From the NCBI RefSeq assembly GCF_964213995.1, contig NC_135818.1:53258001-53322000 (forward strand): 64,000 nucleotides of DNA. The letters are read 5' to 3'. Source of the stretch: Mustelus asterias. Taxonomy: Eukaryota. The position numbers and the translations under genes were made by a program. This document shows positions 14,786-50,129 of this stretch, one piece after another (within the stretch, counting starts at the first letter, position 1; each line of letters opens with the position of its first letter). The notes beneath the pieces are model-generated. The model did not search any database. It saw nothing but the letters and a program-made list of their open reading frames with translations, and was not told where the DNA came from.

Positions 14786-15654
14786 CATCTTTTAAGTTTA
14801 GGGGGAATTTGGGAGAAATTAACAAGGTAATATCTGAATTCTTTACGGCATTCATGTTAAGGAGTAAATTGGAATTAAGAGGAATAAACATTTTAAATAC
14901 GTATGCCGAAAGCTCCTAATGGTTAGTACATTATTATTCTGACTAAATGTTAACTCTGTTTCTCTCTCAGATAATGCCTGATCTGATCATCTTCAGCATT
15001 TTCTGTTTTCATTTCAGATTTCTGGTATCGGCGGGATTTTGCTTCTCCACCCTTCTACTTTGTTTGCCACAAGTCGATCCTCAGCACCATAGCTAAATAA
15101 AGCACCTGTTCTTTAATTTAAGTGCTCCTTTTGGAGATTAAGGCTAGCCAGGATGGATTTCTAAAGGTAGACTATGCTCGACTAATTGAATTCTTTGATG
15201 ACGCAACAGAGAAGGCTGATGAAGGGCATGCAATGGGTGTTTATATAGATTATAAGGCTAGTTAACAAAATATTGTAGACCAAGTGAATCGAGAAGCTTG
15301 GCATGTGGATTGAGTATGAACACCAAGAAGAGAAAAACAACGGTAGTCGGAAGGACTACATTAGAAGAAACAAAAGTGAACATTAAAATTAATAGTGCCA
15401 CACTGTAACAAGGAGGTAAAATGTGTCTACTTAGTACAAATAATAACAGAAGGTAACAGATGCAATGGCGAAATCAGACGGATAGAGATGGTCAGAAGTA
15501 ATTTCTTCATGATGAATGATGTGTTAACAAGAAAACTCAAGCATTTAATAAGGAAATGACTTCATGTGCTACATTCTATCCACTTTCCTGTACACCTCAA
15601 AACCTGGACAATAATATAGATTTGTGGAAGATGATGCATGCTTAAAATTTCATA

Positions 15655-15758
15655 ATGTGGAGATGCCGGCGTTGGACTGGGGTAAACACAGTAACAGTTT
15701 TAACAACACCAGGTTAAAGTCCAACAGGACTTTAACCTGATGTTGTTAAAACTGTTAC
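15655..15758. mobile_element. Fold-back mini-insertion from a Penelope-like element terminus
   Basis: Shares AGTTT(T)AACAACACCAGGTTAAAGTCCAACAGG with the element end at 47482 onward; 12-bp TSD TAAAATTTCATA (15643-15654 / 15759-15770). Confidence 0.75.
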
Positions 15759-21190: not shown

Positions 21191-21964
21191 CCAGGCTCAA
21201 AGGATAAATATTGAAGTTTCAAAAACAGATTTAGAAGAACAACAACAGAAGAAGAAGAGGATACCTCAAGCTCTAAGCTCGATGAAGTCTGACCCCTTCC
21301 CACGCCTGTCCAGCACAAGTGAGTAGAGACACCCCTACAGGTCCCATAGATAAGTATAAGGAGTTAAAATCTATGTTTGCGAATACAAGATTTATAGGGG
21401 AATAGAAGCATTTACTTGTGATACAGTGTAAGAGAGTCAGTGTTGTAGCAGTACATTTTCCTAATAAAGATGTGATTTGATTTAAAGATAAAGTTTTTGT
21501 GTCGATCAATTAACTGGAGCAAGGATCTTGGTTAACACACCCTTTTCAAATAGTGGGGCTACATTAGCAACCCTCCAATCTGTAGGAACTGTTTCAGAGA
21601 TGGGAGAATTGGCCCAATGAGTAGCTGATCAATATAAATCAAGATGGCTCTGGTTCACTTGTAACTTTAGACAGGGCTTCGGACCCTCCTCTTTGGGGAG
21701 CTGAAAATTCATTTTCTGATTTCCATTCAGCAAATCTGGTAGGAAGGACAATGGAGAGGATAACAATGGGTTTAGAAGTAAATATCCTTATGATTGTTAA
21801 GTCCACAACCAAATCTGAACCTAAGCAGTAAATGAAGAAAAATAACAAAGATAACAGCGAAAAAGTGGCAGAAAGAGGGCATTATAGGCAACTAAGCATT
21901 GTAACTGTTATGGGTTACTTTGTTATCTACTCATTACACCATTATATCAAAAGTTGTTTCATCA

Positions 21965-22680
21965 CTATCATCGACTTCAGGAAGTATACTGGAGAACATG
22001 CCCCTGTCTACATCAATGGGGACCAAGTAGAAATGGTCGAGAGCTTCAAGTTTTTAGGTGTCCAGATCACCAACAACAACCTGTCCTGGTCCCTCCATGC
22101 TGACACTATAGTTGAGAAAGTCAACCAATGCTTCCACTTTCTCAGAAAACGAAGGAAATTTGGCATGTCCACTACCATTCTCACCAACTTTTACAGATGC
22201 ACCATGGAAAGCATTCTTTCTGGTTGTATCACAGCTAGGTATGGCTCCTGTTCTGTCCAAGACTGCAAGAAACTACATAGGATCATGAACAAAGCCCAGT
22301 CCATCACTCAAACAAGTCTCCCACCCATTGACACTGTCTACACTTCCCGCTGCCTTGGAAAAACAGCCAGCATAATTAAAGACCCCCTGCACCCCGGATA
22401 TACTCTCTTCCACCTTCTTCCATTGGGAAAAATATACAGAAGTCTGAGGACATCTACCAACCGACTCAAGAACAGCTTCTTCCCTGCTGCCATCAGACTT
22501 TTGAATGAACCTACTTCGCATTAAGTTGATCTTTCTCTGCACCCTAGCTATGACTGTAACACTCCATTCTGCACTCTCTCCTTTCCTTCTCTATGAATGG
22601 TATGCTTTGTCTATATAGCACATAAGAAACAATACTTCTCACTGTATACTAATACATGTGACAATAATAAATCAAATCAG
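21965..22680 (+). mobile_element. Rex1/Babar-type LINE 3' fragment
   Basis: IIDFRK...VESFKFLGVQIT...NFYRCT.ESILSGCITA.YG...RLKNSFFPAAIRLLN; tail TGTGACAATAATAAATCAAATC. Tail pieces also at ~41330-41380 and ~53265-53425. Confidence 0.85.
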
Positions 22681-24221: not shown

Positions 24222-24345
24222 GAGTTCTGAGGAAAGGTCATTGACTTGATTAACTCTGTTTCTCTTTCCACAGATACTACCGGACCTGTTGAATATTTCC
24301 AGCATTTTCTTCTGTTATTTCAGATCTTCAGTATTTTATTTTTGC
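24222..24345 (+). mobile_element. Old Penelope-derived short element with a decayed hammerhead motif
   Basis: AGTT CTGAGGA A AGGTC ATT GACTT GA--TT AACT followed by the reverse complement of the 45396-45490 family sequence. Confidence 0.5.
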
Positions 24346-32494: not shown

Positions 32495-33269
32495 CTGTAA
32501 TAGAAAAAAATTAAATCTCAATGATAACGTAGAATTTTGTATATACCACTTTCTTTAATAATTCCATAGCCAACTTTATAAATAAGGAACATTGATATTT
32601 TCCTCATCACTAGCGTACAATGGTGGGCTAAATTGATATTCTGAATTTTTCGTTTAATTACCTTCATGAATTATAATCCTGAAAGTGGATAAAGCTGTAT
32701 AAACAGGTAAAATCTGTGACAGAATAGATGGTGCATGGTCTGTGGAAGTAAGTTACTTGGTGGATCTAATTACCTTTTTTCATTCAATGTTTTTAAAATG
32801 TCATGGAACAGGATTGGATAGTACGATAGGTCGTTTTTACTCCTGAGACCTGGATTCATAAATAAACCAAATTGTTCTAATACACATTCTAGGAAGCTGT
32901 ATGGTTTCAGGCTTTCTAAAATGAAAAGCAATTTCAACCCTGTTTCTTTATCACTTGGGGCTGACATGGACAAACAGGAAAATTCACACTGAGACTGAGT
33001 TCAGGATAGGTTGCTGGGCAAAGCAAAAGTGGTTTTACTCTGTTTCCCTCTCCACTGATGCTGCCAGACGGAATAGAATTTCAGGTCAATGATCTTTCTC
33101 GGAACTTTCATAACTCTGTGATTTCTCGCTTCACAGATACAGCCAGACATGCTAAGTATGTCCATTATATTTTATTTCAGATATCCAGGATCCCCAGTAT
33201 TTTGTTTCTTTTTGGTTACTCTGCACCTGGAATGTAGAATCCCTGACCTGGGGTGTTACACATTAACCT

Positions 33270-34150: not shown

Positions 34151-34238
34151 TTGCTTTGATTGTAGCTCTACAGTGATTTTTTACGCCAAGTACACCAAGG
34201 GCAGCACAGTGACAGAGTGGTTAGGACTGCTGCCTCAT

Positions 34239-36009
34239 AAAAAGTGGGGACAAAAGTGGGGAATTATGCTTAGAGCCCAAAGAAGTAGGGGAGATCCTAA
34301 ATGAATACTTTGCGTCCGTATTCACAAAGGAGAGGGATGTGATGACTGGGAGTGTCTCGGAGGGGACTGTTGACCCGTTAGAGAAAATCTCCATTACAAG
34401 GGAGGAAGTGTTAGGTTTTTTAGGGAATATAAAGACTGACAAATCCCCAGGGCCTGATGGAATCTATCCAAGGCTGCTCAGGGAGACGAGAGATGAAATC
34501 GCTGGGCCTCTGACGCAAATCTTTGTCTCGTCACTGGACACAGGTGAGATCCCAGAGGATTGGAGGATAGCTAATGTGGTCCCGTTATTTAAGAAGGGTA
34601 GGAAGGATAACCCGAGAAATTATAGGCCGGTGAGCTTGACGTCCGTGGTAGGGAAGTTGTTGGAGAGGATTCTTAGAGATAGGATGTATGCGCATTTAGA
34701 AAGGAATAAACTCATTAACGATAGTCAGGATGGTTTTGTGAGAGGGAGGTCATGCCTCACTAACCTGGTGGAGTTTTTTGAAGAAGTGACTAGAATGGTT
34801 GACGAGGGAAGGGCCGTGGATGTCGCCTATATGGACTTTAGTAAAGCATTTGACAAAGTCCCTCATGGTAGGTTGGTGCAAAAGGTTGGATCCCATGGGA
34901 TAAAGGGGGAGGTGGCTAGATGGGTGGAGAACTGGCTTGGTCACAGAAGACAGAGGGTGGTAGTGGAAGGGTCTTTTTCCGGCTGGATGCCTGTGACCAG
35001 TGGTGTTCCGCAGGGCTCTGTATTGGGACCTCTGCTGTTTGTGATTTATATAAACAATCTGGAAGAAGGTGTAACTGGGGTGATCAGTAAGTTTGCGGAC
35101 GACACCAAAATGGCTGGACTTGCAGATAGTGAGGAACATTGTCAGAGGCTACAGAAGGATATAGATAGGCTGGAAATTTGGGCAAAGAAATGGCAGATGG
35201 AGTTCAATCCAGATAAATGCGAAGTGATGCATTTTGGTAGAACTATCGTAGGGGGGAGCTATACGATAAATGGCAGAACCATAAAGGGTGTAGATACGCA
35301 GAGGGACCTGGGTGTGCAAGTCCACAGATCCTTGAAGGTGACGTCACAGGTGGAGAAGGTAGTGAATAAGGCATATGGCATGCTTGCCTTTATAGGATGG
35401 GGCATAGAGTATAAAAGTTGGGGTCTGATGTTGCAGTTGTATAGAACGTTGGTTCGGCCGCATTTGGAATACTGCATCCAGTTCTGGTCGCCACACTACC
35501 AGAAGGACGTGGAGGTTTTAGAGAGAGTGCAGAGGAGGTTTACCCGGATGTTGCCTGGTATGGAAGGGCTTAGTTATGAGGAGAGATTGGGTAAACTGGG
35601 GTTGTTCTCACTGGAAAGACGGAAGATGAGGGTATAAAGGTGTATAAAATTATGAAAGGCATAGATAGGGTGAACGGTGGGAAGCTTTTTCCCAGATCGG
35701 TGGTGACGTTCACGAGGGGTCATAGGTTCAAGGTGAGGGTGGTGGGGTGGGGGGGGGGAGGTTTTACACGTATATCAGAAGGACGTATTTTACACAGAGG
35801 GTGGTGGGGGCCTGGAATGCGCTGCCGGGCAAGGTGGTGGAGGCGGACACACTGGGAACATTTAAGACTTATCTAGATAGCCACATGAACGGAGTGGGAA
35901 TGGAGGGATACAAAAGAGTGGTCTAGTTTGGACCAGGGAGCGGCGCGGGCTTGGAGGGCCGAAGGGCCTGTTCCTGTGCTGTATTGTTCTTTGTTCTTTT
36001 GTTCTTTGT
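34239..36009 (+). mobile_element. Young 5'-truncated CR1 LINE with an open reverse transcriptase frame (34339-35637), inserted in a V-SINE
   Basis: 432-aa ORF with KSPGPDG, NYRPVSLTS, DFSKAFD, GVPQGSVLGP and FADD; (TTGTTCT)n tail. SINE head at 34199-34238, SINE body resumes at 36010-36290. Confidence 0.93.
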
Positions 36010-45170: not shown

Positions 45171-45395
45171 AAGTGAGAGTGAATTTAGATTAGATTGAAA
45201 TGAGCAGCAAGAGTGAAAATTGGAGGGTTAAATACATTGAGGTACTGCAGCATTATGTTGGCATTAATTTTAATGTAATTATATTTAGAGTAACCTACTC
45301 TAAATATATTATGATGATTGAAGTGAGCATACGCCCATTGCTATTTATTTTGCAGAATCCAGCAACAAGACGTAAATAATATGTATCCTTCAGAG

Positions 45396-45592
45396 TAAAA
45401 GCAAATTACTGCGGATGCTGGAATCTGAAACCAAAAGAGAAAATGCTGGAAAATCTCAGCAGGCCCGGCAGCATCTGTAAGGAGAGAAAAGAGCTGACGT
45501 TTCGAGTCCAGATGACCCTTTGTCAAAGCTTTGACACAGCTGGACTCAAAACATCAGCTCTTTTGTCTCCTTACAGATGCTGCCAGACCTGT
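45396..45592 (-). mobile_element. Short Penelope-type fold-back element carrying a hammerhead ribozyme motif
   Basis: 14-bp TSD TGTATCCTTCAGAG (45382-45395 / 45593-45606); inverted arm 45527-45590; sister copy at 49179-49301. Confidence 0.75.
45492..45530 (-). ncRNA. Minimal type I hammerhead ribozyme motif, U3-A8 variant
   Basis: Minus strand reads AGCU UUGACAA A GGGUC AUCUG GACUC GAAA CG UC AGCU. Confidence 0.65.
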
Positions 45593-45944
45593 TGTATCCT
45601 TCAGAGGTTCAGTACAGAAATAGTACATTTATATATTTAGGGTGTAACTTCACCCACTGCAGGCATACACTTGGAAAGTTACCCCTCAAGTATATTTGAG
45701 GAGGTGTTTCAATTATCACCTTTTTTGTTAATAAATTAAGTTTTTTTTAAAATACAACTATTAATCAGGCTTTGCAAGTTTTCATGGTTTGGTGTGCAAG
45801 TAAATGATTCTTCTGCCTGTTTTTTGAAAGATTAGAACCAAAGGATTCAAAATCAGTGGGCCTTGCACTGTTGTCAGATTTTAAACAATGCAAAACCTCC
45901 AGCTCCCAATCTATTGCACTAAATTTTCATGTCAGGGTCATCAA

Positions 45945-46320: not shown

Positions 46321-47481
46321 TGGTGTGGGATGTACAACCCCCTTCATTTCTGGTATTACTGTGGTATCCACCTCACTGGGAAAGCAGGAATTTTGGAGGG
46401 GCATCTTGCACTAAAGCTGACTAGGATGCTGTCCAAAGATGGGCAGAGATAATCAAATTCTGTACCATTCAAAGTTAACACCAAAGGCAATTGATTATTC
46501 CCAAAGACAATTGACCATAATTTTCAGATATATGCTTACAGCATACATGGTGGTTAGAATGTAGAATTCTTTACCACAAACTATTATTGAAACACAGGAA
46601 TTAGAAATCTGGCAAATGAATCATTTGTGGTCTCCATTACCACCTGAATCTTGGCCTGGCACACAACTTGCTTGTCATGCGCAATTGAGCACAAACTGTT
46701 GGGAAGCATCCATTCCCACCTTGAATGGCATTTGGCAGCATGGAGAAAATTCAGCCTATTTGCATACAGTGCAAGTCCAATAAACTGGCCTGTTTCTGTC
46801 ATGTAACCAAAGATATTAAGGGATGTAAGACAAAGACTATGGAGTTAGGTCACAGATAAGCCACAATCTCATTGAATGGCAGAACAAGCGTGAGACAGAA
46901 ACTCGTTAAGCCATCTTCGACAGCACCTACCCAAACCGCAACCTCTACCACTTAGAAGGCACAGGGTAGCAGATGCATGGGAACACCTCAACCTGCAAGT
47001 TCCCCTCCAAACTACACTCCAGCCTGATTTGGACTATATCGCTTTCCTCCACTGTCGTTGGGTCAAAATCTTGATAGGGGATCTCATAGAAACATATAAA
47101 ATCCTGATGGTACTGGACAGACTAGATGCGGGAAGAATGTTCCCGATGTTGGGGAAGTGCAGAACTAGGGGTCACACTCTAAGAATAAGGGGTAAGCCAT
47201 TCAGGATTGAGATGAGGAAGAGTTACTACCACAGAAAGCTGTTGGGCCAATTCGTTAGATATGTTCAAGAGGGAGCTGGACGTGGCCCTTGTGGCTAAAG
47301 AGATCAAGGGGTATGGAGAGAAAGTGGGAGTGGGATACTGAAAGTGCATGATCAACTATGATCATATTGAATGGTGGTAGAGGCTCGAAGGGCTGAATGG
47401 CCTACTCCTGAACCTATTTTCTATGTTTCTATGTCTATGTTTGAAACACCTTCCCCAGCAGCACTGTGGGTGTACCTTCAT

Positions 47482-48150
47482 AGTAAGAAGTTTAACAACA
47501 CCAGGTTAAAGTCCAACAGGTTTATTTGGTAGCAAAAGCCACACAAGCTTTCGGAGCTGCAAGCCCCTTCTTCAGGTGAGTGAGAATTCTGTTCACAAAC
47601 AGAGCATATAAAGACACAGACTCAATTTACATGAATAATGGTTGGAATGCGAATACTTACAACTAATCAAGTCTTTAAGAAACAAAACAACGTGAGTGGA
47701 GAGAGCATCAAAACAGGCTAAAAAGATGTGTATTGTCTCCAGACAAAACAGCCAGTGAAACTCTGTGGGGGTTACAGATAGTGTGACATGAACCCAATAT
47801 CGCAGTTGAGGCCGTCCTCGTGTGTGCGGAACTTGGCTATCAGTTTCTGCACAGTGACTCTGCGCCGTCGTGTGTCGCGAAGGCCGCCTTGGAGAACGCT
47901 TACCCGAATATCAGAGGCCGAATGCCCGTGACCGCTGAAGTGCTCCCCAACAGGAAGAGAACAGTCTTGCCTGGTGATTGTCGAGCGGTGTTCATTCATC
48001 CGTTGTCGCAGCGTCTGCATAGTTTCCCCAATGTACCATGCCTCGGGACATCCTTTCTTGCAGCGTATCAGGTAGACAACGTTGGCTGAGTTGCAAGAGT
48101 ATGTACCGTGTACCTGGTGGATGGTGTTCTCACGTGAGATGATGGCATCT
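47482..48150 (-). mobile_element. Penelope-like element 3' fragment (GIY-YIG endonuclease C-terminus plus pLTR)
   Basis: ANVVYLIRCKKGCPEAWYIGETMQTLRQRMNEHR...PVGEHF...GLN; 12-bp TSD GTGTACCTTCAT (47470-47481 / 48151-48162). Confidence 0.88.
47540..47582 (-). ncRNA. Minimal hammerhead ribozyme motif in the Penelope-like pLTR
   Basis: CAC CUGAAGA A GGGGC UUGCA GCUCC GAAA GC UU GUG. Confidence 0.7.
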
Positions 48151-48289
48151 GTGTACCTTCATGACATGGACTGTAACAGCTTAAGAAGGGCAATTATGGA
48201 TGGGCAATATGAGCGATATTCACCCATGAACAAAAAAACAAAAAAAGGCCTACTCTTATTCCTATGTTCCTATTCTATACCTGGTCCTC

Positions 48290-48600: not shown

Positions 48601-50129
48601 TCCAAACCAATTCCACTAAAGATGAAGGTAAACTGGAAACATGAACTGTAAGTGGTACCTCAAACCAGCTGCAAATGGTTTAGTTTGGTGATAATGTTTT
48701 CAATTTTTCAGGAGTGGATGAAGTTTGCAAGTTTTAAGTTCTGCATCAGTGTATTAAGTGGCAAACTTGCTAAAGGAACAATGTGTAATGTTGTAGTTTT
48801 GTAATGTTTGTAATGTTGTAGTTACACACATGGTGGTGCTGATGAGCTAAAATATAATAATTCTGTGACTACACGCCGTGCTCTATTCAAGGACGGTGCT
48901 AATTAGCAACCAGTTTAAATCACAATTGTCGAATCATTCTTCAGAAAGTCAGGTAACACTTTAATGTGATGAAATGAGGATCATAATTCTCGGCTCTGAA
49001 TTCAAGAGCTGGACTGTTAGTTTTTGGTGCCTTTAATTCTGTTGCTTTCTTGATAGAGTTTCAGGAACAGAAATAAAAAAGATTTCTTACAATCATTATT
49101 GATATTTTTTTTCTTAGCACCCTTTCCTCTCTCTTAGGTTAGCAACTCCTCGCTAGAGCACAGTTTTATGAGCACTGGAACCAAAAGAGAAAATGCTGGA
49201 TTATCTCAGCAGGTCTGGCAGCATCTATAAGGAGAGAAAAGAGCTGACGTTTTGAGTCCAGATGACCCTTTGTCAAAGCTGGCATCCGCAGTAATTTGCT
49301 TTAATGAACACTGGGCCTATTTCAACATTGACGACATTTACCTATCTGGCAATTATTTGTTTGAGTCTTCATGGTGAATTTTGATAGATCACTAGATGGC
49401 AGAAACATCACAGCGTAATGCAGTCCAAATGTCCAGAAGTGTGTTATTCCAGTAAAGGTTTGTCGTAAATACAAGAGTTCTGATCTAGTACCCCTCTGGA
49501 ACCCAAGGATGCTGTGAGTAATAAATCTAGACTAACCAGTCTATGATTTAATGTTTTGAGTAAGACAACCCTGAAATCCCTTATTTCCAGCTGTGTGTGC
49601 AGTTTCTCTGAGCGTTCTGCCAGTCTCCTGCCAGAGCTCCATTAGGAGAGTAACTAAATCCCAACAGAATTTGAGGGCCAATATATTTAAGCAGTTTTTC
49701 ATGTTCCTCCCTTCATAATTTCAGAAAGCTCATTTAATATGTTTATAATATATTTGCAAAATATTTATTTTAAAATATATTCTTCATTTTGAAGGTTTGG
49801 TCTCGAAATAAGACACCAGGGTGGGATGGTCATTTTTTTTGTCCAGTACAAAAACTTGGGAGCAGAAGACAAAGCATATTTATGTTGTGTTTGCATTGGC
49901 TGTCATACCCAGCAACTAAGAACATGGATGCTCTTCCCTAGAAAGAATAGCAGAATTTGGGATAATATCTGATACTAAACTTACAATAAGTCTTTTCCAA
50001 ATAACAATAGAAATGTTTACATTTATATCAGGTTTTTTTAAGTTTACCATCATAAAGTGAGCAAGAGTATCCAAGGCCCTGGTCTCTTTGTTCTGTATTA
50101 CCTACCGTGGACTCAAGAAATACACAAAG

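Follow-up and report, generated by a model that had tools for sequence, protein, structure and literature searches.

Hammerhead ribozymes in which the core pair C3-G8 is replaced by U3-A8 are already published, including in Penelope elements of Schistosoma. The Cercyon Penelope-like elements (PLEs) of S. mansoni carry about 1,300 minimal hammerheads with this replacement (Cervera and de la Pena 2014, PMC4209133), and the same report describes minimal hammerheads in the Xena, Poseidon and Neptune elements of fishes, the coelacanth and Xenopus, with low activity as dimers. Activity in vitro is also stated for natural hammerheads in which C3-G8 covaries to U3-A8 (Perreault et al. 2011, PMC3088659). 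In the anole element PAc, a Poseidon of Anolis carolinensis, the ribozyme is dispensable for insertion in vitro (Frangieh et al. 2024, PMC11167929).

The repeat described here, at 45396-45592 of a 64-kb window (the whole stretch of DNA that was analysed), is very probably a truncated fold-back copy of a PLE pLTR, predicted to be inert, from a younger subfamily whose U3-A8 core is likely to be a compensated change in the master element. The subfamily is one more natural case of the variant, with a dated C3-G8 sister in the same genome. As in Cercyon, the ribozyme is a minimal type I form in the pLTR with an extra base before helix II, G10.1-C11.1, a palindromic 15.2-16.2 and U3-A8, and its copies are mostly single and truncated, with pairs on opposite strands. 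Unlike Cercyon, it resides in a vertebrate-sized genome and in a probable Neptune-type element, has a 5-bp helix II and is accompanied by a C3-G8 sister from which the change can be dated; its exact matches number about 2,840, compared with the roughly 1,300 hits of the Cercyon report. The architecture, the location and the thousands of dispersed copies are shared with Xena, Poseidon and Neptune, for which U3-A8 is not given in the text consulted of PMC4209133, although its supplements may do so.

Several features are probably shared with PAc: a tail delimited by two internal sites of RT initiation, a template that is mainly uncut RNA (in PAc, in vitro), and a ribozyme placed at the pLTR-ORF junction. 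PAc is, however, C3-G8 and its ORF starts in helix II, and the element here has a zinc-finger-like linker of a kind absent from Penelope/Poseidon (PMC8557442). In the portions consulted of Perreault et al., the natural U3-A8 cases are not presented as motifs of a pLTR without helix III. Animal non-LTR retrozymes (bioRxiv 10.64898/2026.07.22.740005) are also hammerhead-bearing, pLTR-related sequences, but they are tandem, whereas the copies here are single or inverted and have the same sequence as the end of a coding element. No prior report of shark-type PLE hammerheads was found among the papers that our search listed; Lunse et al. (RNA Biol), the work on 3-8 exchange and the supplements of PMC4209133 may list U3-A8 cases from fishes or sharks.

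The fold-back element and its neighbours

The element is flanked by an exact direct repeat of 14 bp on the plus strand, at 45382-45395 and 45593-45606, which is the target-site duplication (TSD) that an earlier note on this DNA had reported; none of 2,000 random 35-nt window pairs at the same spacing exceeded 11 bp. Arm 1 (45396-45530, minus strand) corresponds to the terminal 135 nt of the pLTR; it opens with the first base of helix I and closes with the tail, and it differs from the subfamily majority at only two of 135 places (98.5% alike), with its CpGs intact. Its final 35 nt or so (45396-45430) are an optional tail, since copies of the family commonly have their 3' end either before it (about +100 to +106) or after it (+135), and a tail of this kind is described as an element feature in PMC8557442 and PMC11167929.

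The hammerhead motif occupies 45492-45530 of the minus strand. Read from 45530 to 45492, the letters are exactly those previously claimed: helix I AGCU (45530-45527, pairing with AGCU at 45495-45492), the core UUGACAA with U3 at 45526 and A8 at 45521, an extra A, helix II GGGUC/GACUC (45518-45514 with 45508-45504), GAAA (45503-45500), then CG, UC and the closing AGCU. A palindromic ACGU spans 45500-45497, and the predicted cut site is between 45496 and 45495. The motif has the core 3-U-G-A-N-8-A, G12-A13-A14-A15.1, U16.1-H17 and a Watson-Crick 3-8 pair (U3-A8), together with helices I and II, the extra base before helix II, G10.1-C11.1 and the palindromic helix III stub of the minimal form, so its assignment to the Penelope-type minimal type I hammerheads holds. 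At E≤5, an Rfam scan of the window recovered none of the hammerhead families, its only matches being to miRNAs, driven by hairpins and below their gathering scores; since the scan also misses a canonical C3-G8 motif at 47579, the Rfam hammerhead models do not cover minimal forms.

Arm 2 (45527-45592, plus strand) is an inverted, shorter copy of the pLTR (66-68 nt) that has the central AGCT in common with arm 1, and in which CpG changes and the loss of 6 nt spanning the core and helix II have disrupted the ribozyme. The two arms of the fold-back extend over 58 nt and are 88% complementary. Helices I and II have predicted pair probabilities of 0.84 and 0.97 when the 135-nt arm is free, and of 0.0 in the whole fold-back (-109.3 kcal/mol, z -14). 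As the focal copy has no upstream TATA-like box, it would be transcribed only by read-through, and arm 2 would then pair with arm 1; the copy is therefore predicted by folding to be locked in a hairpin and inert. Dimer folding with ViennaRNA gave an alternative duplex rather than a double hammerhead; the ACGU stub by itself gives -3.1 kcal/mol. As a separate observation, the two arms differ although they lie inside one perfect TSD: in arm 2 both CpGs of the ribozyme have become CA and six bases are missing, a contrast to arm 1 that could come from different templates, error-prone synthesis of the second arm or hairpin-biased repair.

A sister copy of the same subfamily is present at 49175-49302 (minus strand), consisting of a pLTR part (49175-49280) and a 21-nt inverted tail piece (49282-49302). 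The earlier note was correct that its motif at 49242-49280 has the same UUGACAA core, with U3-A8, but overlooked a change of G12 to A at 49253, by which GAAA reads AAAA. G12 is the general base of hammerheads, and with its loss this copy would be dead.

Between these two copies, at 47479-48158 (minus strand), is a 3' fragment of a second, different Penelope-like family, which served as the outgroup. It contains a GIY-YIG frame (48158-47775), a TATA-like box 31 nt before helix I and, at 47579-47541, a minimal hammerhead of the canonical C3-G8 form that has an AGCU palindrome. A fold-back of this second family's tail is found at 15655-15754, and its hairpin accounts for a sub-threshold Rfam match to mir-3015. 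Older relatives of the focal repeat end or its 3' region, 70-76% alike, are seen at 24254-24325, 14945-15044 and 33124-33204. Two plus-strand frames in the window, one of 470 aa with an RVT_1 domain (34225-35637) and one of 230 aa with a Pfam ALKBH8_N match (21832-22524), are likely LINE remnants.

The Penelope-like element behind the repeat

The 135 bases are the pLTR end of a Penelope-like retrotransposon that codes for an RT and a GIY-YIG endonuclease separated by a linker of Neptune type. In longer copies the repeat is preceded by a pyrimidine-rich 3' region and, before that, by the endonuclease frame, which is seen upstream on the same strand in loci L002, L022 and L025 (Pfam GIY-YIG, E 4.5e-4, below the curated cut-off). 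Among the 20 fetched loci with the longest endonuclease-bearing frames, 19 have the U3-A8 end downstream. The longest frame, of 556 aa, includes YIDD, a CX5CxxC linker and the endonuclease; the RT was identified from motifs read by eye, as Pfam did not name an RT domain and a PDB sequence search gave 0 matches. The order is that of endonuclease-positive PLEs, a single ORF upstream of the repeat with the RT followed by a C-terminal GIY-YIG domain. A CX2-5CxxC linker between RT and endonuclease marks Neptune and Nematis and is absent from Penelope and Poseidon (PMC8557442), and by this linker, which Nematis also has, the element is probably of Neptune type.

Among 30 loci retrieved through the 5' portion of the ORF, four also have the motif upstream of it; L171, L173 and L174 are examples, and at L173 it is present at both ends, 3,427 nt apart. 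Between the ribozyme and the ORF, L171 (1060-1300) and L173 (926-1170) each have several motifs of a pyrimidine run plus CAG that resemble splice acceptors. An inverted pLTR with a tail has been described for Penelope-like elements (PMC8557442), and here inverted, 5'-truncated copies with the optional tail of 30-40 nt form fold-backs in 12 of 30 loci picked on the tail; inverted 5' copies occur in long copies as well. The 3' ends fall into two clusters some 35 nt apart, one at about +100 to +106, the other at +135. No intact full-length frame was present among the 150 endonuclease candidates scored, out of 49,823, and with this and a non-CpG divergence of 2.5-4.7% the description of the element as recently mobile applies only loosely.

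The earlier note had proposed a separate non-autonomous family, a reading that gives way to the pLTR of an element coding for both enzymes. In one form of that reading the short elements would propagate themselves, like retrozymes or SINEs, using a Penelope-like enzyme. Short copies with a sharp 5' boundary are indeed the largest class (13 of 30 loci) and number thousands genome-wide, and animal retrozymes have been reported as non-autonomous pLTR derivatives (bioRxiv 10.64898/2026.07.22.740005, in the part consulted). Yet the short copies are 93-97% like the end of the ORF-bearing copies, with no diagnostic bases seen, and they have no upstream TATA-like box; an ORF-bearing long copy (L153/L172) has the same first base as they do, and the fold-back junctions vary from copy to copy. 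A retrozyme or other non-autonomous family would form head-to-tail arrays and have a distinct sequence, whereas no such arrays were seen in 60 loci, one of which has a local duplication of 39 nt, and the same end is carried by 19 of the 20 endonuclease loci. A self-propagating short family is thus very improbable, and this reading is not needed beside that of truncated copies of the coding element.

Positions 3 and 8 in two subfamilies

The 3.68-Gb genome was searched with a 33-place hammerhead pattern left open at positions 3, 7 and 8, counting exact matches only, so that all counts are lower bounds. There were 4,120 matches and 0 for the reversed control, so the focal motif is not a chance resemblance. 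Their core states are U3-A8 in 2,840, C3-G8 in 898, U3-G8 in 86 and, by subtraction, C3-A8 in 296, whereas independence of the two positions would give 2227, 285, 699 and 909. A DNA search with the focal element favoured copies with its rare GGCCCGG variant and was left out of the counts; the 34-base tail motif alone has 8,437 genome matches. When copies of the younger type were picked on the tail or the ORF and not on the core, 115 of 121 were U3-A8. The core is fixed as U3-A8 in one subfamily, and the genome-wide tabulation that had been proposed as a check therefore bore out a family-level state: changes at 3 and 8 are correlated, and the consensus of the younger subfamily is not CUGANGA.

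The U3-A8 and C3-G8 subfamilies differ at 15 of 101 places, 13 of them besides positions 3 and 8, including places in loop II, the tail and the cleavage triplet, which is GUC in the former and GUU in the latter. Non-CpG divergence from the subfamily's own majority is 2.5% (32/1279, 20 copies) for U3-A8 and 4.7% (78/1659, 26 copies) for C3-G8, both samples having been chosen by the same pattern; the U3-A8 subfamily is the younger. In fetched loci of the distant Penelope-like family, 34 of 39 copies are C3-G8 and none has A8. The lower divergence and the state of the distant family together make U3-A8 the likely derived form, and with the U3-A8 subfamily younger than its sister, the 3-8 covariation amounts to one event in this genome.

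The mismatched classes look like decay, at the level of single-site decay. On the younger background there are 48 copies with C3-A8 and, by hand count, about 43 with U3-G8, each 1.5-1.7% of 2,840, and the remaining 248 C3-A8 copies, which lack this background, appear to fit CpG loss at positions 7-8 in the older sister. No amplified C3-A8 or U3-G8 intermediate was found, there being no shared subfamily among the copies read (20 of 48 and 14 of 86). The proportion of copies running upstream of helix I is three of 20 for C3-A8 on the younger background, compared with eight of 14 for U3-G8 and 11 of 30 for unselected copies, all small numbers.

Selection for catalysis had previously been suggested because two copies share the variant core, but that sharing reflects common descent, and inserted cores decay as fast as sequence elsewhere: individual core bases have changed in 2.5-8% of copies, compared with the non-CpG mean of 4.7%, and G12, which is in a CpG, in 26%. 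Inserted copies thus show no selection, the core decaying like its flanks as expected for dead insertions. The lineage of the master element would have changed both bases once, and U3-A8 is likely a compensated change that kept the core pair there. G8 lies in a CpG of the C3-G8 sister and is a likely hot spot. Support for selection on the pair is indirect: between the masters neither the rest of the core nor any of the ten helix II bases has changed, the pair is restored, and the same pair arose elsewhere.

It is also conceivable that the younger subfamily carries only a dead relic of a ribozyme, in which C3U and G8A are two neutral transitions fixed in a master that had ceased to depend on cleavage. 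That G8 sits in a CpG in the older sister fits such a history, as does the derivation of copies from uncut RNA; in the anole element, mutation of the ribozyme does not prevent insertion in vitro and RNA-seq yielded no reads ending at the cut site (PMC11167929, as far as consulted), and a single covariation event beside 13 other differences in 101 nt leaves room for drift of two transitions. The remaining core and the ten helix II bases are nevertheless the same in both subfamilies, and the two changes restore a Watson-Crick pair, while helix I gains U-A for U-G, the triplet becomes GUC and neither mismatched state has been amplified. U3-A8 moreover recurs in Schistosoma PLEs and in other natural hammerheads, where it is stated to be active in vitro (PMC4209133 and PMC3088659, in the parts consulted). 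We therefore regard a relic as unlikely and a compensated change in the master as the better account.

At about 80.4-84.4 Mb of C15 (loci L147-L167) there is a cluster of duplicated segments, 96-99% identical, that contain a copy of the focal element. Five loci show a change of A9 to G. The cluster reflects segmental or tandem duplication of the host DNA and not transposition.

Where copies begin, and a proposed transcript start

Of 30 copies picked on the tail, 13 begin within -3 to +4 of the first base of helix I, 11 extend upstream and six begin inside the next 35 bases. Exact matches to +1..+27 number 4,221 genome-wide, and the exact six upstream bases are present in only 1,392 of these, a figure somewhat lowered by mutation within the six bases. 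The long ORF-bearing copy L153/L172 begins at the same base as the short ones, and in five runs of assembled contigs, related contigs have loose ends at the same +1 boundary in each. A TATA-like box is located at -30 in all six younger copies where it was found and at -30 to -32 in six older copies, in which the spacer has diverged. In the distant family, 15 of 39 copies have such a box between -31 and -35 (in 11 of the 15 it is at -31), and one branch has none. From the copy ends and the TATA-like motif only, we infer that transcription is likely to start where helix I begins, some 30 nt downstream of the box.

Copies that begin at the cut site are rare. Only 202 of the 8,437 tail matches lack C17. 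Of these, 30 were read; six have their first base at the cut site, and each of the six is at an inverted junction with microhomology from AGCT. Apart from fold-back junctions there is no pile-up of copies starting there, in a test that misses copies whose flanking base happens to be C. This rarity suggests that the RNA that is copied is mostly uncut.

These observations suggest a mechanism, put forward tentatively, in which the ribozyme would be the first 39 bases of a capped transcript started from the TATA box at -30. Cutting would then strip off the cap, so that the ribozyme would work as an off-switch and not in excision. Reverse transcription likely begins 100 or 135 nt further down, at either of two sites. 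From a start within the 5' repeat it would continue until the RNA ended, and the copies of 100-135 nt would be run-off products on uncut RNA that thereby mark the start site in DNA. The joining at the palindromic AGCT of two such products, or of one that folds back, would give the inverted structure. The ribozyme would cut only slowly, as a dimer or with the element's protein, and the copied RNAs would have been mostly uncut. If the ribozyme does stand at the transcript start and copying is confined to uncut RNA, it would serve to limit the element's RNA or to set its timing, and the U3-A8 and C3-G8 sisters would offer a natural pair for testing selection.

The geometry of a start at helix I may be a new lead: no earlier report of the TATA/helix I arrangement was found in a literature search, although Lunse et al. 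or the supplements of PMC4209133 may contain it. The Penelope element of D. virilis has a TATA-less internal promoter, and a putative TATA box has been noted in a rotifer pLTR (PMC3846280).

The sharp 5' boundary might instead mark a 3' splice site, in which a pyrimidine run leads up to AG at +1/+2, or a stop caused by self-priming on the AGCT palindrome; we hold this to be possible but doubtful. A pyrimidine run does precede the AG, the end of a D. virilis intron maps to the 5' end of helix I (PMC4209133, in the portion consulted), and palindromes at inverted junctions have elsewhere been read as self-priming (PMC3846280). On the other side, the AG is kept in the copies, 49 alignments beginning at +1 and 13 at +3, and no upstream exon is common to them. 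Copies without a fold-back begin at the same base as well, and in the distant family short copies begin near helix I where no AGCT palindrome is present.
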